Assembly: GCA_947628895.1 (NCBI GenBank)
Contig: CANRBS010000001.1
Coordinates: forward strand, 5,783 to 69,782
DNA: 64,000 nt
Origin: an uncultured Bacilli bacterium
Lineage (GTDB): Bacteria; Bacillota_I; Bacilli_A; RF39; UBA660
Direction of reading: 5' to 3'
The notes under the pieces are model-generated. The model saw nothing but the letters and a program-made list of their open reading frames with translations, was not told the DNA's origin and did no database searches. How positions within the stretch are numbered: the stretch's first letter is position 1; every line of letters begins with the position of its first letter. This document shows, piece by piece, positions 7,191 through 61,288 of the stretch. Position numbers and translations under genes: made by a program.

Positions 7191-7679
7191 GTGAATAGTC
7201 TTATTAAAAAAATATATATTAGAAACACTATTAAAAGTAGTTCAAAAGTTATTGAAGCAAAATTTATAAAAAAAGATGGAATAAAATATTATGTAGATGG
7301 CAAAAATGTGATATTAGATTATACAAAAAATGAATTAGAAATAGCAAAATGGTTGGTAAGTATATTAGGCGGAACAATATATTTATTACCAAGAATTAAT
7401 TATCCTGAAAATATAAAGACAGCAGATTATTTATGGAATAACGAATTTTGGGATTTGAAAGAAATTAATGGAAAAGGAAAAAATATTTTAGATAATAGAA
7501 TTAAAAATTATCAAAATCAATCAAATAATTTTATTTTAGTAATTAAAAATAATAAATTAAGCATAAAAAATATTGTACTTCAAATTAATAAAATTTATAA
7601 TTCTCCACATAGATTATGGGTAAATAAAATAATAATTATTAAAAATAGCAAATTATTAATGATAATAAAAAGAGATTGA
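7191..7679 (+). CDS. hypothetical protein with a possible PD-(D/E)xK nuclease-like core
   Basis: The 162-aa ORF uses a GTG start after an AGGAGGT RBS. The motif ...TADYLWNNEFWDLKEI (D...(D/E)xK) is present. Its 3' end lies inside the tandem repeat. Confidence 0.4.
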   Translation: MNSLIKKIYIRNTIKSSSKVIEAKFIKKDGIKYYVDGKNVILDYTKNELEIAKWLVSILGGTIYLLPRINYPENIKTADYLWNNEFWDLKEINGKGKNILDNRIKNYQNQSNNFILVIKNNKLSIKNIVLQINKIYNSPHRLWVNKIIIIKNSKLLMIIKRD

Positions 7680-17348: not shown

Positions 17349-17807
17349 TTAATTACAAGAACTTAAATAGCTCTCATAATTTCCTCCTTCAGTTTTATAA
17401 ATATAATTTCCTGCATCTCCACAATATAAATATGCATTTCCTGTATCATATATATCATTCTCATTTGCTTTTAAAACTACTATTCCACTGCATGGAACAC
17501 TTTTATAAAAAATTGTATCAAAATATTCTTTCTCTTGTAATGTAGAAATACAAACATATTTTGTTTTATCATCTATTTTTTTAAATTTAGAATTACATTC
17601 TTGCCTATGAGTATCATCAATTGAATGAGTACAATAATCTTGAACAAATAATTTAGCAGCATCTATTGCTTCACCTTCTTGAGCTTGCATTGTATCATCA
17701 ACAGATTCATTAAATATATCAATAACATTTGGTATAACTATAATTACTAATATTGCTATAATTCCAATTACTGCAAGTAATTCTACCATTGTAAAACCTT
17801 TTCTCAT
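17349..17807 (-). CDS. short type IV pilin/pseudopilin (ComGC-like) with a Cys-rich globular domain
   Basis: The prepilin leader is MRKG|FTMVELLAVIGIIAILVIIVIPNV, with F at +1 and E at +5. The mature part contains six Cys. The start was moved to the ATG that follows a GGTGA RBS. Confidence 0.75.
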   Translation of the reverse strand: MRKGFTMVELLAVIGIIAILVIIVIPNVIDIFNESVDDTMQAQEGEAIDAAKLFVQDYCTHSIDDTHRQECNSKFKKIDDKTKYVCISTLQEKEYFDTIFYKSVPCSGIVVLKANENDIYDTGNAYLYCGDAGNYIYKTEGGNYESYLSSCN

Positions 17808-17926
17808 ATCTTTCACCATATTTATTTTATCATTTAATATAAATACATTCAATAATAAAAATTAAAAAATGTAAAATTAGCATATAAAAAGTATTTAATT
17901 TTTAATAAAACTAAATACTAATATTT

Positions 17927-18601
17927 TTATTTTTTTAATTTTTTTATATTATTTTTTATAGATTCTATTTCATTTAATATTTTAATTTTATTTTTATAAC
18001 TATTTCTTAATAATATAAAACATAATATAGAAGAAATAATAAAATTAAAGAAAATAATTATAACCGTATCACTTAAAGGCTCAGTTTTGTTTGAAGGATT
18101 AGCCATTTTTTCAAATACATCATACCTATCTTCACTATTATATAATTTCACTATTTCTTCTTCAATTTGACTATTAAAACTACTAGAATAACCTACAAAT
18201 GTTTTATCACCTATTATTATAAAAGGGATACCAAATTCTTGTGAACTTGTATCATAATTAAAAAATTCTCCAACTTTATTTAAAAGTTTTGCATTATTTT
18301 CATCATACCAAGTTTCAAAAGAAATAAAATTAAAATAATTTGCATATTTTTTTAATATCGTATCATTTATATAATTAATAAAATCACTACAATGAGGACA
18401 ACCTTTTCCTCTAAATAAGTAAATATTAATTTTATCTTCACTTTCTTTATAATTACTTAAATCAGTATTAATACCCTCACTTTTAAATACATCTTCTAGT
18501 GTTTCAGTATTATAATCAGATATATTTATTTCTTCTGCTTTTATATTAATAGTATTAAAAATTAATAATAAATTTAAAATCAATAAAATTATTTTTTTCA
18601 T
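17927..18601 (-). CDS. secreted, membrane-anchored thioredoxin-fold thiol-disulfide oxidoreductase (DsbA/BdbD-like)
   Basis: A signal peptide is followed by GCPHC in a thioredoxin-like fold. A C-terminal TM anchor is present. The RBS is AAAGGAG. Confidence 0.7.
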   Translation of the reverse strand: MKKIILLILNLLLIFNTINIKAEEINISDYNTETLEDVFKSEGINTDLSNYKESEDKINIYLFRGKGCPHCSDFINYINDTILKKYANYFNFISFETWYDENNAKLLNKVGEFFNYDTSSQEFGIPFIIIGDKTFVGYSSSFNSQIEEEIVKLYNSEDRYDVFEKMANPSNKTEPLSDTVIIIFFNFIISSILCFILLRNSYKNKIKILNEIESIKNNIKKLKK

Positions 18602-18733: not shown

Positions 18734-20473
18734 CTAATTTTTAAGAACAATCCTAGAAGTGATGCTATAATATACATCACCGGTACTTCTAGCAAAACGA
18801 AATTGACCTGCTGTTACATTATCACTATGACCACCTCCACGATCAATCCAACTATATGAAGAATCAAGAAAGAATGAATAATCTTTATACCAAGCATTTT
18901 TATAACTTCCATCACTCCAAAATGGTCCCATTTCTCCTGTTGCATCTCCAAGGATCCTATATTTATATGTTAGTTTATCACTTGATGATGAATATTTATC
19001 TAAATATTTTGTATATGTTTCATTTGATACTATATTTTTCATTCCACTAACATTTAAATCACTACCATCTCTATATGAAGCCATATATTCCCAAGATCCG
19101 CCACTCATATCATATACTCCAGTTATATTTCCTGTAGTACTTGCTAATTTTCCAGTATCTGTATTCCATAATGCATTTTCTGTTGTACTAGTAATTGCAT
19201 CTTTAGTATTAGCTGCATATCCTGTTAAAAAATTACTATTGTTATTAATTCTTACTTCATCTTTTATTCCATATTTAGAGTGTGAAAGATATGCAACTGC
19301 TCCCCACTCTGTATTTTTCATCATATGACTATCTAAGCTTCTATTAAAATTGTAAGCATTCATAAATAAATTATATACTGTTGCACCTCTCCATGAATAT
19401 ACATTAGGTTTTATTATTATATTATTAGGTTTTTCTTCATCTACTTCTGAATTTTCTTTTATCCAAGTAGATATATTTTCATCAGTTATTGGTTGTGTTG
19501 TATCACTATTTTGATTATATCCTGTTTCAAATTTTCCTACCCAAAATCCATTTGATGGTATTGATAAAAATGCTGGATGTGTCATTAAATCTCCTACTTT
19601 GCAATCTTTTGTAGCCACACTTGCTCTTGATGAACCACTTTCCATTGGTGTTATACATTCACCACTTACTTCACTTGTTGTTCTTGTTCCAAATTCTATC
19701 TCTATTTCTTTTATTTGACTTTCTGGTTGACTACTTTCTAAGCCTTCATAGTTTCCAATATTGAATATTCTATAACTATATTTTGGTATCCATACAAAAT
19801 ATGCCCTTATATCACTTTCTAATATTGTATCTCCTTCTTTATATTCTTTACTTGGAGTGTCTACTAGTATTACTGCATTTGCCCATTTCTTTGATGTATA
19901 TTTATACCATTCATCATACTCATCCGCATATGTTACTACACCTGTATCTGATAACATTATTGGTATCATTTTATCTCCTAGTACTGGGTCAGCTCCATTT
20001 AATTCACTTTCTACATATTTTGTTTTTGGTTTTTCTCCATCAATCAATTGATTTCCTTTACAATCAGTTATACTTGTCTTGGCTTCTTCTACTTTATACT
20101 TTTTACCTATGTCTTCTCTTTGTATTCCACTTGATGAAGAAGCTATTAATTCATTTGCTTCATCTCTTGCGGATATTTCTACTATCTTCCCTTTATCATT
20201 AAATTTTACTACATATAATATGTTACTTCTTCCATCTAAATTTAATACATTTGTACTACTATCAAAACATCTTATTTCTTTATTTCCAATTGAAGAAGAT
20301 ACATATTTATCTTCAGCACTTCTTATTATATTTTGTACTTCACGGGTAAATGTATTTACTTTTGCATCTCTAAACATTTTAAGTACATTTGGAAGTGCTA
20401 TAATAACTAAAATTGCTAAAATTGCTATTACTGCTAGTAACTCTACTAATGTAAATCCTTTTTTATCTTTCAT
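18734..20473 (-). CDS. modular type IV pilin: prepilin N-terminal domain fused to an FGE/SUMF1-like (C-type-lectin-fold) C-terminal domain
   Basis: The leader is MKDKKG|FTLVELLAVIAILAILVIIALPNV. A D-region disulfide (C...C) is present. The C-terminus reads ...EWGAVAYL...GVYDMSGGSWEY, resembling the FGE motif G.YDMSGNVWEW. The protein is about 80% identical to 58074..59807. Confidence 0.7.
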   Translation of the reverse strand: MKDKKGFTLVELLAVIAILAILVIIALPNVLKMFRDAKVNTFTREVQNIIRSAEDKYVSSSIGNKEIRCFDSSTNVLNLDGRSNILYVVKFNDKGKIVEISARDEANELIASSSSGIQREDIGKKYKVEEAKTSITDCKGNQLIDGEKPKTKYVESELNGADPVLGDKMIPIMLSDTGVVTYADEYDEWYKYTSKKWANAVILVDTPSKEYKEGDTILESDIRAYFVWIPKYSYRIFNIGNYEGLESSQPESQIKEIEIEFGTRTTSEVSGECITPMESGSSRASVATKDCKVGDLMTHPAFLSIPSNGFWVGKFETGYNQNSDTTQPITDENISTWIKENSEVDEEKPNNIIIKPNVYSWRGATVYNLFMNAYNFNRSLDSHMMKNTEWGAVAYLSHSKYGIKDEVRINNNSNFLTGYAANTKDAITSTTENALWNTDTGKLASTTGNITGVYDMSGGSWEYMASYRDGSDLNVSGMKNIVSNETYTKYLDKYSSSSDKLTYKYRILGDATGEMGPFWSDGSYKNAWYKDYSFFLDSSYSWIDRGGGHSDNVTAGQFRFARSTGDVYYSITSRIVLKN

Positions 20474-20505
20474 TTTTGTTACCTCTTCTCTATTTTTACC
20501 CCCTT

Positions 20506-20534
20506 ATTATATCGTATATATATATATATATCAA
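20506..20534 (-). promoter_or_regulatory. sigma-A-type promoter of the pilin-FGE gene with a (TA)8-containing 17-nt spacer
   Basis: On the sense strand the promoter reads TTGATA-(TA)n CGA-TATAAT. It is followed by a conserved leader AATAGAGAAGAGGTAACAAAAATG with a GAGG RBS. Confidence 0.5.
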
Positions 20535-20582: not shown

Positions 20583-20613
20583 ATTAAAAAAAGATTACTA
20601 CACTTGTAATCTT
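20583..20613 (-). terminator. Rho-independent terminator of the XRE regulator gene
   Basis: The hairpin AAGATTAC-N7-GTAATCTT is followed by a U-run on the minus strand. It overlaps the stop codon. Confidence 0.6.
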
Positions 20614-21292
20614 AATTTTGATTTATATCAATTGGAATTTTATATGATATTGTTTTTAAATTATCGCTCTTTAAACTTATTTCTAAATACATTTTAGTGT
20701 TTACAAATAATGAATTTTCATTATTATAATTATCTAATTTTAATTTTAAATTTTTTAAATAATTATTAAGTGTTTTATTATTACCTTTTTCACATTCACC
20801 TAATTTTATTTTTTTGCCATTAACTTCACCATATAATATACAATCTAAATTTTTATATATTGTATTATCATCTTTACCATTATATTTAACTTCAGTTATT
20901 ATTAATGATGCTTTTCTTTCACTCCTTGCAACACTTCCTACTATTTTAAAATCATTATTACTAGATTTTATTTCATTTAATGAAAATATTAAATTTTTAT
21001 TTTTAACCATTATAAAACTCATTATTAAAAAAGCAAATACTATTAATGTTACATTTAATATAGTTAACATATCAATTTTAACATTCTTTTTTGCATTAAT
21101 AATTTCATCAATATCAACATTAAATTTATTACTTATTTCTTTTAAGATTAACATATCAGGTAAATTTTTACCATTTTCCCATTTACTAACAGCTTGAAAT
21201 GTAACACCTAATATATCTGCAAATTCTCGTTGTGATAAATTATTTTTAAGTCTTATATTTTTTATAAATTTACCTATTTTCTCTTGATTCAT
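20612..21292 (-). CDS. membrane-anchored XRE-family HTH transcriptional regulator with an extracytoplasmic C-terminal domain
   Basis: The N-terminal HTH_3 domain reads LSQREFADILGVTFQAVSKWENG. One TM helix follows (LTILNVTLIVFAFLIMSFIMV), then a 130-aa outside domain. Confidence 0.7.
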   Translation of the reverse strand: MNQEKIGKFIKNIRLKNNLSQREFADILGVTFQAVSKWENGKNLPDMLILKEISNKFNVDIDEIINAKKNVKIDMLTILNVTLIVFAFLIMSFIMVKNKNLIFSLNEIKSSNNDFKIVGSVARSERKASLIITEVKYNGKDDNTIYKNLDCILYGEVNGKKIKLGECEKGNNKTLNNYLKNLKLKLDNYNNENSLFVNTKMYLEISLKSDNLKTISYKIPIDINQN

Positions 21293-24983: not shown

Positions 24984-25199
24984 ATGTATTATTATGGATA
25001 TAATGGTGGATATGCTGGTGGAAATAGTATGTACTATAATACTTATCCAGGTTATAATAATGGTGGATATGGTTATGGTGCTGCATTTGTATTAGTATTA
25101 TTCATTTTATTAGTTATAATATTTGGTGTAGGATTTGTAAATAATGGTAATGGATTTGGTAATGGTAACAATGGTTGTGGCTGTGGCTGTAATAACTAA
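24984..25199 (+). CDS. YjcZ-like small Gly/Tyr/Asn-rich membrane protein
   Basis: Gly-, Tyr- and Asn-rich ends flank one TM helix (AAFVLVLFILLVIIFGVGF). The tail ends in CGCGCNN. A strong RBS (TAAGGAGGT) precedes it. Confidence 0.55.
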   Translation: MYYYGYNGGYAGGNSMYYNTYPGYNNGGYGYGAAFVLVLFILLVIIFGVGFVNNGNGFGNGNNGCGCGCNN

Positions 25200-39588: not shown

Positions 39589-41457
39589 ATGATATATTAC
39601 TCAAAATCTTATGGAATAGATGATTGTATAAATAGACAAATAGATATATCAATATCTCTTAGTAAAGAGTTTAGTGATAAAACTATTTATATGTTAAATG
39701 ATGATACAAATTTTAAAGACTTATTTAAAAATACAAATATTAAAGTAATAAATGATTATAAAAAATTAAAAGAAAATGATATAGTTGTTTTAAACTATTA
39801 TGGTGAAAGTAAAAATACTTATGATTATTTAAACAAAAATAAAATCATTTATTATGAATCATGTTCATTTGATATATCTAATACTAGTAAAACTATATTA
39901 GAAAAATATAATCAAAAATTTAATATTATTATAGTTGGAGATAAAAACTCAAAAGAAGTAATTAATTATAATACTTGGTGTAATAAAAAAGCATTAATTA
40001 TTGATAACATTAGTGATTTTAAGTTAATAAATAAAAATAATTATTTTATATTTTATTCTTTATATACATCAGTTGAATTATTAAATGAATTACAAAAATA
40101 TTTAAATGAAAATAAAATTGATTATGAAATAGATAATTCTATTTATGAAAGACAAAATAATATAGAAAAAGATACTATTAATTTATCTGAATATGTAGAT
40201 AAATTAATTATATTAGGAAGTAGTAATTATACTAATAAATTAGTACAAAAATGTTCTTTAAATACTAAAGTATATTTATATAAAGATATAAATGAATTTT
40301 ATAAAGGTATTAAAGCTGAAAAATTCACTAATGAAGAAAAAATAGGATTTTCTATGGAAGAAAATATTTCTAGAAATATTATGTATGATTGTGCTCATTT
40401 ATTAGAATTTTATATTTATTATAAAGATAGAATTAAAGATATAGAAGAAGAAATAAATAATTTTAATGAATTTATCAAATCAAAAGATAATAAAATTATA
40501 ACTGAGGCTATTCAAAAATTTATTAATATGAATAGTGGTGGTAAATATTTAAGAGCAATACTTATTGATCTTGGATATAAGTTAAATAAAGATAGTGATT
40601 ATGCACTTAAACTCGCTTCTTCTTATGAAGCATTTCAAACTTCTATATTAATACATGATGATATTATTGATAACTCTTGTTTTAGAAGAGGAAAAGAAAC
40701 TATTTCATATAGCTATAAAAAAGAATTTGAGTGTTTTAACTCTAATGATAATATTCATAATAATTTAGCTCTTTGTATTGGTGACTTAGGATTTTACTTC
40801 GTAAATGAATATATACTAAATAATTATAAAGATAATAAAAACTTTAATAAATTATTTTCTTATTATAATAATATTGTTATTAATACTATTAAAGGTGAAA
40901 TACTTGATGTTTATTTACCTTTTGTTGAAGAGTATGATAAAAAACGGGTATTAAAAGAAGAAGATATAATGGAAATATATAAATTGAAAACGGCACACTA
41001 CTCTATAGTCGGTCCATTTGTTATGGGAATGATACTATCTAACTCAAGAGATGATGAAATTAAAGAAATGGAAAATATTTTAGAGAATGTTGGTATTGCT
41101 TTTCAAATAAAAGATGATATTTTAGGTATTTATAGTAGTAATGAAATACTTGGAAAACCAGTATTTAGTGATATTGAAGAATTTAAACAAACAATACTTT
41201 ATTCTTATATTAAAATTAATAAAAAAGAATATTTAAATGAATTACTAAAATATTATGGTAAAAAAGAATTAACAGAAGATACTGCGGTAAAAGTACAAAA
41301 AATCATTGAAGAATCTGGTTCACTAAAATATGCTAATGATAAAATGAATGATATGTTTACTTTAGCTAAAAGAGAAATTAATTTTCTTCAAATTAATAAA
41401 GAAATAAAAGATATACTACTAGGTTTAATAGTATATTTAGAATTAAGGGAAAAATAA
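39589..41457 (+). CDS. trans-polyprenyl diphosphate synthase (IspA/GGPPS-like) with a 300-aa N-terminal extension of unknown function
   Basis: The C-terminal half carries both Asp-rich motifs (ILIHDDIIDN and FQIKDDILG). The N-terminal half has an IILGSSNYTNKL block weakly reminiscent of the IspH/LytB VVGSxNSSNS box. Confidence 0.7.
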   Translation: MIYYSKSYGIDDCINRQIDISISLSKEFSDKTIYMLNDDTNFKDLFKNTNIKVINDYKKLKENDIVVLNYYGESKNTYDYLNKNKIIYYESCSFDISNTSKTILEKYNQKFNIIIVGDKNSKEVINYNTWCNKKALIIDNISDFKLINKNNYFIFYSLYTSVELLNELQKYLNENKIDYEIDNSIYERQNNIEKDTINLSEYVDKLIILGSSNYTNKLVQKCSLNTKVYLYKDINEFYKGIKAEKFTNEEKIGFSMEENISRNIMYDCAHLLEFYIYYKDRIKDIEEEINNFNEFIKSKDNKIITEAIQKFINMNSGGKYLRAILIDLGYKLNKDSDYALKLASSYEAFQTSILIHDDIIDNSCFRRGKETISYSYKKEFECFNSNDNIHNNLALCIGDLGFYFVNEYILNNYKDNKNFNKLFSYYNNIVINTIKGEILDVYLPFVEEYDKKRVLKEEDIMEIYKLKTAHYSIVGPFVMGMILSNSRDDEIKEMENILENVGIAFQIKDDILGIYSSNEILGKPVFSDIEEFKQTILYSYIKINKKEYLNELLKYYGKKELTEDTAVKVQKIIEESGSLKYANDKMNDMFTLAKREINFLQINKEIKDILLGLIVYLELREK

Positions 41458-56112: not shown

Positions 56113-57879
56113 CTAATTTAATAATGTTATTTTTGCATAACCATTTCCAGTATGTCCAACTTCTGTTCCACCATCTGGTTTTGGCATACTCTCATTTCCA
56201 GCAATCATTTGTGTCTCTGTAAATACTTTTCCACTATAATGGTTTGGAGAGTCTAAATGCTTTATATTATTTTCTGTTGAAGTTGCTGTTATTGCTTTAC
56301 ATCCTGGGTGACCTGATATAAATGAAGATCCACCTGAACCTGATGATTTTGATCTAACATTTTGTGATTTACCACCATAATATCCGCCTCCGCCTCCACC
56401 GACACCATCTCCTGCAGCATAACCAACACCATCCATTCCTTTTCCTAAAGCATACCCACTTGTTTGACTTCCACCTAAAAGTGTATCATATAATGTTCTT
56501 GCAGAAAGTCCTCCTCCTTCGCCAACATCAAATTCCCAAGACCTTCCACCACCGCCAGCTGCAACCATTATTCTTGATTTTAAACTTTCAAAATTATCCC
56601 ATTTACCACTAGTTAGTCTTACATCAGTAGCTCCTCCGCCTCCACCAGAAGTCTCATCGTCACTACCATCAGTAGTTCCAAGACCTCCACCATTATATCC
56701 TCCTAGTGAATTTTCTCTTAAAACTGCATCTACTCCTTTACCTCCAACATAAATATATAACTCTTCATCTTTATTTAAAGTTATTTTTCCAGTTGTATAT
56801 GCTCCATTTCCGCCTTCTTTACCTCTCTTACCACTCATTAATGAGGCACCACCTTGTCCACCCCATAATTCAATTTTATATACTCCTGTTTTTGGTACTA
56901 CAAATGTCTCATAATTTCCAGTAAATGTATAATTTACTTTTGACCATATTGCATATAATGTTACTCTACCATTTTTATCACTTGTTAAATTTTTTACTAT
57001 TTCATTATTTTCATATGTTATTACTTTTGAAGTTTTATCTAATGACCAACCTACAAATTGATAACCATCTCTTGTAAAATTATTTGCAGTTAATTTTTCT
57101 TCTTTATCATATGTATGTGTTGATGAAGTTGTTTGTCCAGTTCCTTCATTTGCATTATATTCTACTGTATATGTATGAGCTTCATACTTACTTTCTAACA
57201 CAGTTGTACTATTTAATTTTGATAAATTTTCTTCTACTATATTTCCAACTTCATCAATTACTTTATCTTCAGTATTTGGTATATAATATCCTAAAAAATC
57301 ATATCCTTCTTTTTCTACTACTTTATCTAATTTTGTTATTTGAGTTGTTTTATCTTCTTTATATAATTTTCCATCATTTAAATATCCATAATTTGGAGTT
57401 GAGCCATCAAATGAGATTATTGGATATTTTGTTTCACTTCCTTGAAATATCAAACTTCCATCACAATCAAATATTATTGTTTCTTGACCTCTTTGATTTA
57501 CTTTATATGTTTTTCCTATATCTTCTTTTTTTATTCCATTTTCATTTGTAGCTATTAATTCATAAGTATTATCTACAATTTTTATTTCTGTTATTTTACC
57601 TTTATTTGATAATCTTATTAAATATACCATATCACTTCTTCCATCTAAATCTAATTTATTTTTATTACTATCAAAGCAGGTTACTCTTTTACTCCCTAAT
57701 GATAAAGATACAAACTTATTTTCTGCCTCTCTTATCATATTTTGTACTTCACTTGTAAATGTTTTTTCTGTTGAACCTTTAAATAATTTTAATACATTTG
57801 GTACTGCTATGATTACAAGTATCGCGAGTATTGCTATTACTGCTAGTAACTCTATTAATGTAAATCCTTTTTTCTTCAT
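56113..57879 (-). CDS. modular type IV pilin: prepilin domain, then a Listeria/Bacteroides flg_new repeat, then a Gly-rich C-terminal domain
   Basis: The leader is MKKKG|FTLIELLAVIAILAILVIIAVPNV. The flg_new repeat reads YTVEYNANEGTGQ...DGYQFVGWS...VTLYAIWS. The C-terminal Gly-rich domain reads VYKIELWGGQGG...LYIYVGGKG. Confidence 0.7.
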   Translation of the reverse strand: MKKKGFTLIELLAVIAILAILVIIAVPNVLKLFKGSTEKTFTSEVQNMIREAENKFVSLSLGSKRVTCFDSNKNKLDLDGRSDMVYLIRLSNKGKITEIKIVDNTYELIATNENGIKKEDIGKTYKVNQRGQETIIFDCDGSLIFQGSETKYPIISFDGSTPNYGYLNDGKLYKEDKTTQITKLDKVVEKEGYDFLGYYIPNTEDKVIDEVGNIVEENLSKLNSTTVLESKYEAHTYTVEYNANEGTGQTTSSTHTYDKEEKLTANNFTRDGYQFVGWSLDKTSKVITYENNEIVKNLTSDKNGRVTLYAIWSKVNYTFTGNYETFVVPKTGVYKIELWGGQGGASLMSGKRGKEGGNGAYTTGKITLNKDEELYIYVGGKGVDAVLRENSLGGYNGGGLGTTDGSDDETSGGGGGATDVRLTSGKWDNFESLKSRIMVAAGGGGRSWEFDVGEGGGLSARTLYDTLLGGSQTSGYALGKGMDGVGYAAGDGVGGGGGGYYGGKSQNVRSKSSGSGGSSFISGHPGCKAITATSTENNIKHLDSPNHYSGKVFTETQMIAGNESMPKPDGGTEVGHTGNGYAKITLLN

Positions 57880-58043: not shown

Positions 58044-58074
58044 ATATAAAAAAAGAAGTAAACCAGTTACTTCT
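58044..58074 (-). terminator. Rho-independent terminator of the pilin-FGE paralogue
   Basis: The hairpin AGAAGTAA-ACCAG-TTACTTCT is followed by UUUUUU on the minus strand. It overlaps the stop codon. Confidence 0.6.
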
Positions 58075-59807
58075 TAATTGGTTGGTGTAAGAACAAGACG
58101 AGAACCATTACTAGGATATGCTACACCCCTATTCCTGTCAAAGTTGAATTGACCAGTAATATATGTATTATTGTAACCACCACCACGATTAAACCAAGGC
58201 TGAGTAGAATGAACAAAATTTGAAAAGTCAGTATACCAAGTACTTTGATTATAACTACCACTACTCCAAAATGGTCCAAGCTCTCCTGTTGCATCTCCGA
58301 GGATTCTATATTTATATAACAATCTATCACTTGATTCTAAATATTTTTCTAAATATTTTGTGTATGTTTCATTTAATACTATATTTTCCATTCCACTAGC
58401 ACTTAAATCACTACCATCTCTATATGAGGCCATATATTCCCAATATCCACCACCTATATCATATATTCCACTTATATTTCCTGTTGTACTTGCTAAATGT
58501 CCTATTGATGTATTCCATTTTGAATTTTCAGTTGCACTTCCTTCTGCGTCTTTTTCATTTGCTGCATAGCCTGTTAAATAATTACTATTATTATTTATTC
58601 TTACTCCATCTTGTATTCCATATTTTGAATATGAAAGATATGCAACAGCTCCCCACTCAGTATTTTTCATCATGTGACTATCTAAGTTTCTTTTAAAATT
58701 GTAGGCACTTTGAAAAAATGTTGCAATTGTTTGATCTCTCCATGAATATACATTAGGTTTTACTATTATATTTGATGGCTTTTCTTCATCTACTTGCGCA
58801 TTTTCAGTTGTCCAAGTAGATATATCAGTATCAGTTATAGGTAAACTTGGATCTTCATTTTGATTATATCCTGTTTCAAATTTTCCTACCCAGAATCCAT
58901 TACTTGGTATACTTAAGAATGCTGGATGTGTCATTAAATCTCCTATATCACACTCCCCAGTTTCTCCACTTTCCATTGGACTTGCACATTCTTTTTTTAT
59001 TTCATCATTTACTGTTGTTCTTGTTCCAAATTCTATCTCTATTTGTTGAACACTACTTTTTTCTGGTTCACTACTTTCTAATCCTTCATAATTTCCTAAA
59101 TTGAATATTCTATAACTATATTTTGGTATCCATACAAAATATGCACGTATATCTGATTCTGCTATTACTTCCCCTTCAGTATATTTTTTACTTGGCTTGT
59201 CTACTAATATTACTGCATTTGCCCATTTCTTTTCAGTATATTTATACCACTCATCATACTCATGTGCATATGTTACTACTCCTGCATCTGATAATATTAC
59301 TGGTATCATTCCACTTCCTAGTACTGGATCAGACCCATTTAATTCACTTTCTTTGTATACTATTTTTTCTCCACTAGTTAACTCATTTCCATTACAATCT
59401 AATATTTGTGTTTTTGCTTCATTTACTTTATACTTTTTTCCTATGTCTTCCCTTTGTATTCCATTTGTATTATTTGCTATTAATTCATTTGCTTCATCTC
59501 TTGCCCTTACTTCTATTACTTTTCCTTTATCGTTAAATTTAACTATATATAATATATTACTTCTTCCATCTAAATTTAATGCATTTGTACTACTATCAAA
59601 ACATCTTACTTCTTTATTTCCAATTGAAGCAGAAATATATTTACTCTCAGCACTCTTCATTATATTTTGTACTTCACTTGTAAATGTATTAACTTTGGCA
59701 TCCCTAAACATTTTTAAAACATTTGGAAGTGCTATAATAACTAGTATTGCTAATATTGCAATTACTGCTAAAAGTTCTACTAATGTAAAAGCATTTTTAT
59801 TTTTCAT
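58074..59807 (-). CDS. modular type IV pilin with an FGE/SUMF1-like C-terminal domain (paralogue of 18734..20473)
   Basis: The leader is MKNKNA|FTLVELLAVIAILA, with Ala rather than Gly at position -1. The protein is about 80% identical to the 579-aa paralogue across the pilin domain, the central IRAYFVWIPKYSYRIF block and the C-terminal domain. Confidence 0.7.
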   Translation of the reverse strand: MKNKNAFTLVELLAVIAILAILVIIALPNVLKMFRDAKVNTFTSEVQNIMKSAESKYISASIGNKEVRCFDSSTNALNLDGRSNILYIVKFNDKGKVIEVRARDEANELIANNTNGIQREDIGKKYKVNEAKTQILDCNGNELTSGEKIVYKESELNGSDPVLGSGMIPVILSDAGVVTYAHEYDEWYKYTEKKWANAVILVDKPSKKYTEGEVIAESDIRAYFVWIPKYSYRIFNLGNYEGLESSEPEKSSVQQIEIEFGTRTTVNDEIKKECASPMESGETGECDIGDLMTHPAFLSIPSNGFWVGKFETGYNQNEDPSLPITDTDISTWTTENAQVDEEKPSNIIVKPNVYSWRDQTIATFFQSAYNFKRNLDSHMMKNTEWGAVAYLSYSKYGIQDGVRINNNSNYLTGYAANEKDAEGSATENSKWNTSIGHLASTTGNISGIYDIGGGYWEYMASYRDGSDLSASGMENIVLNETYTKYLEKYLESSDRLLYKYRILGDATGELGPFWSSGSYNQSTWYTDFSNFVHSTQPWFNRGGGYNNTYITGQFNFDRNRGVAYPSNGSRLVLTPTN

Positions 59808-59839
59808 TTGGTTTACCTCTTCTCTATTTTTACTCCCTT

Positions 59840-59866
59840 ATTATATCGTATATATATATATATCAA
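59840..59866 (-). promoter_or_regulatory. sigma-A-type promoter of the pilin-FGE paralogue with a (TA)7-containing 15-nt spacer
   Basis: The architecture matches 20506..20534 but has one TA unit fewer. The spacer is therefore 15 nt rather than 17. Confidence 0.45.
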
Positions 59867-60082
59867 GAGGCACTTCAATATTTTTACATTTAAAAATCTA
59901 CATTATGTATAACATATATGTAGACTATTTTAATCAAAATGTAGGAGGAAAGACTTGCTAACCTTTCATCTCTTTTGACCATTAAGGTGTGTGGACGCAA
60001 GATATATTTTTCCACCTCTCCTACAAAAAATATTATATCAATTTTTCTTATTTTGTCAATTTTAATTATAAATTTATTCATT

Positions 60083-60106
60083 AAAAAAGACTTCTTACGA
60101 AGCCTT
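60083..60106 (-). terminator. Rho-independent terminator of tuf
   Basis: On the minus strand the hairpin GGCUUC-GUAA-GAAGUC is followed by UUUUUU. Confidence 0.55.
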
Positions 60107-60118
60107 AATTAATTTTTA

Positions 60119-61288
60119 TTATTCTATAATTTCAGAAACTACACCAGCACCAACTGTTCTACCACCTTCACGAATTGAGAAATTAGTTCCATTTTCTATC
60201 GCGATAGGAGTGATTAATTCAACAGTCATATCTACATTATCACCTGGCATAACCATTTCAGTTCCTTCTGGTAATGTAATTACTCCTGTAACATCAGTTG
60301 TTCTAAAATAGAATTGTGGTCTGTAGTTACTAAAGAATGGTGTATGACGACCACCTTCTTCTTTAGATAATACATAAACACTAGCTTTAAATTTCTTATG
60401 TGGTGTAACACTTCCTGGTTTGCAAAGAACTTGTCCTCTTTCAACATCTTCTCTGTTGATACCACGAAGTAAAACTCCAGCATTATCTCCAGCTTCAGCA
60501 TAATCTAAAGATTTTCTGAACATTTCAATACCAGTAACTACTGTTTTTCTAGTATCTCTAATACCAACGATTTCAACTTCATCGTTAAGATTTAATCTAC
60601 CTCTTTCAACACGACCTGTAACAACAGTTCCACGACCTGTGATAGTAAATACATCTTCAATGCTCATTAAGAATGGTTTGTCATTATCTCTAACTGGAGT
60701 ATCAATCCATGAATCAACTGCAGCCATAAGATCTTTAATTGGTTGTACCCATTTTTCATCTCCTTCAAGAGCTTTAAGAGCACTACCACGAATAACTGGA
60801 GTATTTTCTCCATCAAAACCATATTCAGTTAATAATTCTCTAACTTCCATTTCTACTAAATCAAGAAGTTCAGCATCATCAACCATATCACATTTGTTGA
60901 TAAATACAACCATTTTTGGTACACCAACTTGACGTGATAATAAGATGTGTTCACGAGTTTGAGGCATTGGTCCATCTGTAGCACTAACTACTAAGATTGC
61001 TCCATCCATTTGAGCAGCACCTGTAATCATGTTTTTAACATAATCAGCGTGTCCTGGGCAGTCTACGTGAGCATAGTGACGTTTTTCAGTAGTATACTCA
61101 ACATGAGCAGTATTAATAGTAATACCTCTTTCTCTTTCTTCTGGAGCTTTATCAATTTGGTCATAAGCCATGAATTCTCCAAAATATTTAGTAATTGCAG
61201 CTGTTAATGTTGTTTTACCATGGTCAACGTGTCCAATAGTACCAATATTAACATGTTCTTTTGAACGATCGAATTTTTGTTTTGCCAT
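60119..61288 (-). CDS. tuf: elongation factor Tu
   Basis: The N-terminus reads [32 protein letters not shown]. The protein is 389 aa. Its GC content is well above the surrounding average, as expected for this conserved gene. Confidence 0.97.

Follow-up and report, generated by a model that had tools for sequence, protein, structure and literature searches.

What kind of protein is encoded by a gene that begins as a type IV prepilin and ends in a domain resembling the FGE-sulfatase family? The gene in question lies at positions 18,734 to 20,473, on the reverse strand, of a 64,000-nucleotide stretch of contig CANRBS010000001.1 (assembly GCA_947628895.1, an uncultured Bacilli bacterium), referred to below as the window, and its 579-aa product is identical to database protein P0001. 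We propose, at a probability of roughly 0.6, that this is a modular type IV pilin-like surface adhesin, non-enzymatic, which carries a C-type-lectin-fold (CLec) module of the kind diversified by diversity-generating retroelements (DGRs), and that it represents a frozen, ex-DGR variant of such proteins.

Domain architecture of the protein

An initial annotation of the window had described this open reading frame (ORF) as starting with a textbook class III leader, MKDKKG/FTLVE, and our analysis bears this out. The N-terminus reads MKDKKG followed directly by FTLVELLAVIAILAILVIIALP, with Gly at -1, Phe at +1 and Glu at +5, and thus has the charged leader, the Gly, the Phe/Met at +1, the Glu at +5 and the stretch of about 20 hydrophobic residues expected of a type IV pilin signal. 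Pfam N_methyl (PF07963) scored 33.3 bits on the 579-aa protein against a cut-off of 21.2, and TIGR02532 scored 28.9 bits against a cut-off of 16.3. Cleavage by a prepilin peptidase is predicted between Gly6 and Phe7. In an AlphaFold2 (AF2) model of the whole protein, for which a 40-sequence alignment served as input (pLDDT 83.6, pTM 0.75), a 54-residue helix at residues 9-62 is followed by a four-stranded sheet at residues 69-112, then by a beta-rich middle region and a C-terminal alpha/beta domain. A second AF2 model, of residues 1-150 alone, gave the same four-stranded sheet (pLDDT 85.2).

Cysteines occur at positions 69, 138, 273 and 291 only. The pair within the pilin module to which the initial annotation had drawn attention, Cys69 and Cys138, is kept in all three modular pilins of the window. 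Residues 1-135 share 40-60% identity with more than 1,000 proteins, mostly standalone pilins of 130-230 aa from Bacilli/Tenericutes metagenome-assembled genomes (MAGs), and a family profile search matched PilE1 (8pfb) and geopilin at E ~3e-4. Family-wide conservation begins near residue 150 (LNGADPVL...), and the middle region is conserved together with the C-terminal domain.

Fold of the C-terminal domain

Resemblance to FGE-sulfatase had been suggested on the strength of two C-terminal strings, NTEWGAVAYL... and GVYDMSGGSWEYMASY, both of which are present in the protein. The resemblance is real at the level of the fold, since the C-terminal domain has the FGE subtype of the C-type-lectin fold, but the label is too coarse. 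PF03781 (FGE-sulfatase) matched residues 345-469 at E 2.2e-4 over profile positions 84-195 of 255, and its 21.4 bits did not reach the gathering cut-off of 23.3. Among 40 family members, the same profile was matched at E <= 0.01 in 16. When the predicted structure of the C-terminal domain was searched against the PDB with Foldseek, the only significant matches were Mtd (1yu0, E 7e-5) and TaqVP (5vf4, E 1e-4, probability 1.0). A structure comparison gave TaqVP a score of 17.2 (238 residues, 20% identity), with lower scores for PvdO (10.8), TvpA (10.1), Mtd (9.3), SUMF2 (9.2), EgtB (8.4) and classical C-type lectins (5-6). On these comparisons, the specific relatives of the domain are the variable proteins of DGRs. 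These CLec domains bind mostly varied, often protein, ligands, as in the recognition of pertactin by Mtd, and the carbohydrate-binding lectin function proposed in the initial annotation is therefore not implied by the fold.

Variable region and protein family

At its C-terminal end, the domain contains the equivalent of a DGR variable region. With the C-termini aligned, hypervariable positions are set on a conserved scaffold (W-Y-D-S-F-PWF-RGG-AGQF-F-R-G-RLVL). Residues 525-577 align with the variable region and template repeat of a DGR-linked locus in a relative (L002, described below), and the hypervariable positions coincide with the AAY codons of that template. The domain thus shows the organisation that marks DGR targets, a CLec fold in which a conserved scaffold bears the variable region at the C-terminus. 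Mean identity to the 27 closest homologues is 71% in the pilin module, 76% in the middle region, 72% in the CLec core and 39% in the last 53 residues; in comparison with the closest homologue, P0002, the corresponding values are 94%, 91%, 74% and 40%.

The family defined by the C-terminal ~430 aa is very large: at E <= 1e-3, the representatives of 3,489 clusters formed at 50% identity were matched, and at 90% clustering there were at least 7,967 matches among 8,000 scored candidates. Within genomes that represent species, almost all occurrences are in gut MAGs that go by the names of uncultured Bacilli, Tenericutes or Ca. Ventrenecus. Each genome has many copies, and the hosts, gut Bacilli with reduced genomes, are probably RF39-like; a search of GTDB representative genomes with the window protein gave a best match of 61% identity. 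The N-termini of family members are of at least three kinds, namely the prepilin leader, an 'MKK..VIGFASVTTNLIINN' type and plain transmembrane (TM) anchors. Since the family is huge and occurs in many copies per small genome, recognition of surface ligands appears to be a major investment of these uncultured, host-associated Bacilli. We also found giant proteins of 3,700-4,500 aa (P0242, P0291 and P0382) that contain 5-7 repeats of the C-terminal module each.

Retroelement loci in related genomes

Evidence for DGRs acting on this family comes from three independent loci in relatives (L002/L003, L047 and L053), one of which has a target with a prepilin N-terminus. This target, P0093, joins a prepilin N-terminus to the same C-terminal module and lies directly upstream of a MutS_I-like ORF, bAvd and an RVT_1 reverse transcriptase (RT), and the cassette is present twice on one contig (L002 and L003; JAQVKM010000001.1). 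The last 160 nt of the P0093 gene are 91% identical to a repeat 299 nt downstream, and nearly every mismatch has an A on the side of the downstream repeat, namely 14 of 15 by a scripted count, so that the exceptions number one or two. These adenine-specific mismatches are the signature of a template repeat. The same cassette of MutS-like ORF, bAvd and RT was found at L047 and L053, where 15/17 and 12/12 mismatches, respectively, have A in the template; the targets at these two loci have ordinary TM or signal anchors, not prepilin N-termini. DGRs with a MutS-like accessory gene form a class that was already known (Wu et al. 2018, PMC5758913). At L002 and L003 (7072-13908) the target, template repeat, MutS-like ORF, Avd and RT are duplicated identically, and because each of the two sites adjoins a large serine recombinase, the cassette suggests a mobile DGR element.

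A related MAG, CATNCE01 (MGG24433; L011, L013, L016-L019, L023 and L040), contains at least nine dispersed paralogues that share one GC-rich variable-region backbone and differ only at the first two bases of NNC/NNT codons. Because the backbone is shared and the differences are confined to these codons, we read the paralogues as many targets of one template, and on the sequences this implies a putative single template repeat from which many targets of one small genome are served. Within 10 kb of most of these paralogues, no RT was found. The MAG also has further family copies, which are AT-rich and decayed. Across the related loci, the GC-rich signature was seen in 53 of 117 candidate 3'-end segments, a few of which are overlapping calls or template repeats.

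Proposed explanation

In the explanation that we favour, a class III signal peptide, probably cut after Gly6, precedes a complete small pilin module that would serve as membrane anchor or, alongside the 167-aa pilin encoded nearby, would become part of a type IV filament, probably at its tip. The beta-rich region would form a stalk after the pilin module, and would hold out a TaqVP-like CLec domain at the C-terminus, the last ~53 residues of which would be the hypervariable ligand-binding face. In related genomes, the module is a substrate of DGRs, whose RT makes a copy of the template repeat that contains errors at adenines and is written into the 3' end of the gene. The window copies would have fixed specificity, with the diversity in this genome arising from paralogy and not from ongoing hypermutation. 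Both the adhesin role of the 579-aa protein and its display on a filament are what we infer from this architecture.

A wider proposal is that, in RF39-like gut Bacilli, type IV pilus subunits carry DGR-hypermutated CLec adhesins with up to ~10 targets per genome, forming a programmable pilus-tip repertoire from which the window genes have recently been released, or by which they are still targeted in trans. We regard this proposal as tentative, and on balance doubtful. If true, such a repertoire would parallel the DGR-diversified adhesins on type V pili in Bacteroides, yet would be independent of them.

Filament subunit or membrane anchor

Several observations weigh against the explanation proposed above, most of them against its filament. 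Foldseek with the isolated pilin module gave no significant pilin match and returned noise only, so the evidence for a pilin fold is suggestive. Pfam scans covered all window ORFs of 110 aa or more, except those nested within larger annotated genes, and T2SSE, T2SSF and Peptidase_A24 were all without a match in the 64 kb, as the initial annotation had noted of pilus assembly genes. The pilin genes of the lineage are scattered among housekeeping genes. Many relatives carry the C-terminal module on ordinary TM or signal anchors, and a pilus is therefore not required for its display. The family member beside T2SSF and A24 genes at L024 has a non-pilin N-terminus. The remaining point concerns the frozen state. 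The variable region is ~40% identical even to that of a homologue with a 94%-identical pilin module, which is as low as in distant homologues, and such divergence between near-identical homologues could mean recent diversification.

In one rival reading, the prepilin-like N-terminus would be a mere membrane anchor or stalk, pseudopilin-like, for a cell-surface receptor that is never polymerised. The same C-terminal module sits on plain TM or signal anchors in most relatives (L047 and L053, for example), and the dispersed pilin genes and the lack of assembly genes in the window point in the same direction. We nevertheless consider this reading unlikely. The N-terminus amounts to an entire pilin module, homologous to standalone pilins and bearing the G/F/E5 processing motif; a small pilin gene and a thioredoxin-like gene lie next to the modular pilin gene; T2SSF and A24 peptidase genes are encoded in the lineage; and PilB and PilC of S. 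sanguinis, both characterised modular pilins, are subunits of filaments (PMC8179133).

In related MAGs (L024 and L070), genes for a T2SSF platform protein and for an A24 peptidase that processes prepilins, both above curated cut-offs, either adjoin family members or lie no more than 7 kb from them. At L024 9524-14288 and L070 24-2343, a family member with a non-pilin 'MKKKSIIYFFVIALVIGFASVTTNLIINN' N-terminus lies between rplQ and a 539-aa T2SSF gene, which is followed by the A24 peptidase gene. A strict motif scan for the T2SSE ATPase and the A24 peptidase in 1.2 Mb of related loci returned ABC transporters only, and a relaxed scan of the same loci returned two A24 peptidases and two T2SSE-family ATPases; the latter may be conjugative. 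The pilus-displayed module put forward in the initial annotation thus holds in so far as a prepilin N-terminus is fused to a CLec domain, whereas display on a pilus does not follow, since the module is also found on non-pilin anchors in many relatives. Judging from the sequences, incorporation of the 579-aa protein into a filament is plausible.

Frozen or still targeted

The observation on recent diversification would be accounted for if the gene were an active target of a remote DGR, with an RT elsewhere in the genome and one template repeat serving the paralogues in trans. Relatives of the same architecture are DGR targets, CATNCE01 has its dispersed targets with one backbone and mostly no RT within 10 kb, and the GC-rich signature is frequent in related loci. 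In addition, adenine makes up 0.26-0.27 of the variable regions in the window, less than in the gene body (0.44). On the other side, when the L002 cassette (RT, Avd and MutS-like ORF) was used as tblastn query, nothing in the window was matched, and the Pfam scans of its ORFs gave neither an RVT_1 nor a bAvd match. No template repeat was found in the window either, where the 3' 300 nt of each paralogue match only the other paralogue, at 71%.

Base composition argues in the same direction. The variable regions of the window (18743-18901 and 58083-58240) have a GC content of 0.34-0.36 and an A content of 0.26-0.27 (0.34 and 0.27 in the copy at 18743-18901), compared with 0.51-0.58 and 0.14-0.18 in the DGR-linked copies and with a GC content of ~0.30 and an A content of 0.39-0.44 in the gene bodies. 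Except for L088/P0017 (GC 0.31), they are the most AT-rich of the variable regions examined, at a GC content of 0.33-0.36 in that comparison. A GC-rich 3' end and a GC-rich downstream hairpin are present in 3/3 DGR-linked copies and in neither window copy, so that the GC-rich, A-poor variable region, the 3' end of initiation-of-mutagenic-homing (IMH) type and the GC-rich hairpin that would mark an active target are all missing here.

Protein identity between the two paralogues in the window is 70-92% along their length and falls to 46-52% in the last 60 residues, and their variable regions differ also at third codon positions and scaffold residues. Because these differences are many, the paralogues have not recently been written from one template. 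The nearest homologues for which DNA was available, P0017 and P0018, have equally decayed variable regions and no RT nearby. In view of all this, we consider it quite unlikely that the gene is still targeted in trans. Since RT, Avd and template repeat are absent from the 64 kb and the variable regions are AT-rich and decayed, we read the window genes as frozen ex-DGR copies, which is the most likely status of both the 579-aa gene and its paralogue as far as sequence can tell. The A-depletion left in their variable regions fits a formerly written region that is drifting to genome composition; amino-acid composition could be an alternative cause. As such, the window copy lends itself naturally to a comparison between frozen variable regions and actively diversified ones.

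An FGE/SUMF1-, EgtB- or PvdO-type enzyme exported through a pilin-like signal is very improbable and was rejected because residues 292-579 contain no cysteine, which means that the FGE catalytic pair is absent and agrees with the earlier suggestion of a possibly non-catalytic module; moreover, PF03781 stays under its curated cut-off and the C-terminus is hypervariable, unlike a conserved active site. A phage receptor-binding protein was also considered and was rejected in view of the housekeeping chromosomal context, the gene's own promoter and terminator and the membrane-anchor N-terminus.

Comparison with known systems

In what follows, we take IPR005532 to be the SUMF domain. The initial annotation was not aware of any FGE-like module on a pilin, but the architecture IPR012902-IPR005532 is listed with 8 proteins by Raynaud et al. 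2021 (PMC8179133, Dataset S1), together with IPR012902-IPR011460, -PF12810 and -IPR005046, and the 579-aa protein falls within the definition of a modular pilin given by these authors. According to a 2024 survey of DGRs (PMC11661182), a GspG-type pilin domain is among the rare domains on variable-region proteins. Our literature search found no paper that combines 'diversity-generating retroelement' with 'prepilin', and a search for RF39 and type IV pili found nothing relevant. Type IV pilins of modular build are established, as are the variable proteins of DGRs, and we found no study of both together; the pilin-FGE architecture itself has already been catalogued, and the window copy shows no active mechanism.

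The closest known systems are TaqVP from Thermus aquaticus (PDB 5VF4) and, more broadly, Mtd from Bordetella phage BPP-1 and TvpA from Treponema denticola, none of which is on a pilin module, Mtd being a phage tail-fibre tip and TvpA a lipoprotein. In contrast to these three, the window copy has no template repeat or RT in 64 kb, and its variable region is compositionally decayed. With PilB (vWA module) and PilC (lectin module) of S. sanguinis the 579-aa protein shares a small class III pilin module, a bulky ligand-binding module and a monoderm host. Unlike PilB and PilC, it has a DGR-type CLec module instead of a vWA or ConA-like lectin module, the pilin genes of the window lie outside a pil operon, and its incorporation into a filament is putative. 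In comparison with FGE and SUMF2 (PF03781), the window protein differs by its lack of catalytic cysteines, its sub-cut-off score, its hypervariable C-terminus and its extracellular anchor.

The best-studied analogue is found in Bacteroides, where DGRs diversify the adhesins of type V pili (bioRxiv 10.1101/2024.11.15.621889). In both cases a gut bacterium has a DGR-variable CLec-type adhesin on a pilus subunit scaffold. However, the type V pili of Bacteroides (FimA-like, lipoprotein-sorted) are unrelated to type IV pilins, and the Bacteroides loci have DGRs in cis, whereas the window gene does not. Should the pilin-anchored members of the family prove to be filament subunits, they would show that presentation of hypermutable adhesins is open to type IV as well as to type V pili.

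Genomic context and other features

The features of the locus are collected in Table 1; the small prepilin, the paralogue and the third modular prepilin had been overlooked in the initial annotation. The window DNA has a GC content of ~22%, and its gene content is housekeeping (ruvAB, lgt, rplS, lepB, thyA/folA, mutS, tig, greA, tuf, fusA, rpsG, ABC transporters and others). The promoter-like site upstream of the modular pilin gene matches 11/12 consensus positions, and in the AT-rich DNA of the window such sites are not above shuffles.

Table 1. Positions of the modular pilin gene, its parts and associated features in the window
Feature	Position	Strand	Basis
Modular prepilin-type protein gene, 579 aa	18734..20473	-	ORF; N_methyl and weak FGE-sulfatase match; AF2 model
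Class III leader MKDKKG, residues 1-6	20456..20473	-	Sequence reading, N_methyl, TIGR02532
Pilin module, residues 7 to ~140 (helix alpha1, four-stranded sheet, Cys69/Cys138)	20054..20455	-	
Beta-rich middle region, residues ~141-344 (Cys273/Cys291)	19442..20053	-	Family conservation, AF2 pLDDT ~85-97
FGE-like / DGR-variable-protein-type C-type-lectin-fold domain, residues 345-579, cysteine-free	18737..19441	-	
DGR variable region equivalent, residues 525-577	18743..18901	-	Homologue identity profile; alignment to variable region and template repeat of L002
Promoter-like TTGATA-17-TATAAT (20534-20506) and GAGG ribosome-binding site 8 nt before ATG	20482..20534	-	Consensus match
AT-rich terminator-like hairpin with T-run, 3' of stop codon	18659..18681	-	Consensus match only
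Thioredoxin-like membrane protein (signal peptide, CPHC motif, C-terminal TM segment)	17927..18601	-	Translation; Thioredoxin_2 17.8 bits, below cut-off
Small prepilin (...MRKGF/TMVELLAV...), 167-aa listed ORF	17349..17852	-	N_methyl 26.1 bits, TIGR02532 24.1 bits
Paralogue P0009, 577 aa, 73% identical, same architecture	58074..59807	-	tblastn; N_methyl 28.8 bits; codon comparison
Third modular prepilin	56113..57879	-	ALK_LTK_GRD 179.5 bits, Flg_new 42.1 bits, N_methyl 30.5 bits

Two genes downstream of the modular pilin gene, the small prepilin is a candidate major or partner pilin. Its start is more likely an internal ATG at 17819 or 17807 than the listed TTG at 17852. The thioredoxin-like gene is located between the two pilin genes, and its CPHC protein may oxidise the conserved pilin Cys pair, by analogy with BdbDC and ComGC in B. 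subtilis. An upstream gene for a helix-turn-helix (HTH) regulator (20612-21292) was considered as a component of the system and was dropped, its likeness to the regulator near the PilC/PilD genes of L024 being a generic HTH domain only.

The paralogue lies directly downstream of tuf and is directly adjoined by the third modular prepilin, in which the same pilin module (54% over ~165 aa) is combined with a Listeria-Bacteroides repeat and an ALK/LTK-type glycine-rich domain. In other relatives, the module is fused to DUF285, dockerin or ephrin-receptor-like domains. Because it is fused to so many different domains, the pilin module can be regarded as a general carrier, as in modular pilins (PMC8179133). 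We also observed that genes of the family recur at the ends of translation operons, namely after tuf (window 58074-61288), in the rpoC/rpsL gap (L001 10001-12527) and after rplQ (L024 9088-11218).

Three further ORFs on the forward strand of the window deserve mention. A 162-aa ORF at 7191-7679 has a CdiA C-terminal toxin domain (55.5 bits), with no obvious large delivery protein upstream. At 24984-25199, a 71-aa peptide rich in Gly, Tyr and Asn has one TM segment and ends in CGCGCNN; we liken it, as an assumption of ours, to the small YjcZ-like sporulation peptides. Finally, the 622-aa ORF at 39589-41457 contains LytB/IspH and polyprenyl synthetase domains, an apparent gene fusion in isoprenoid synthesis.

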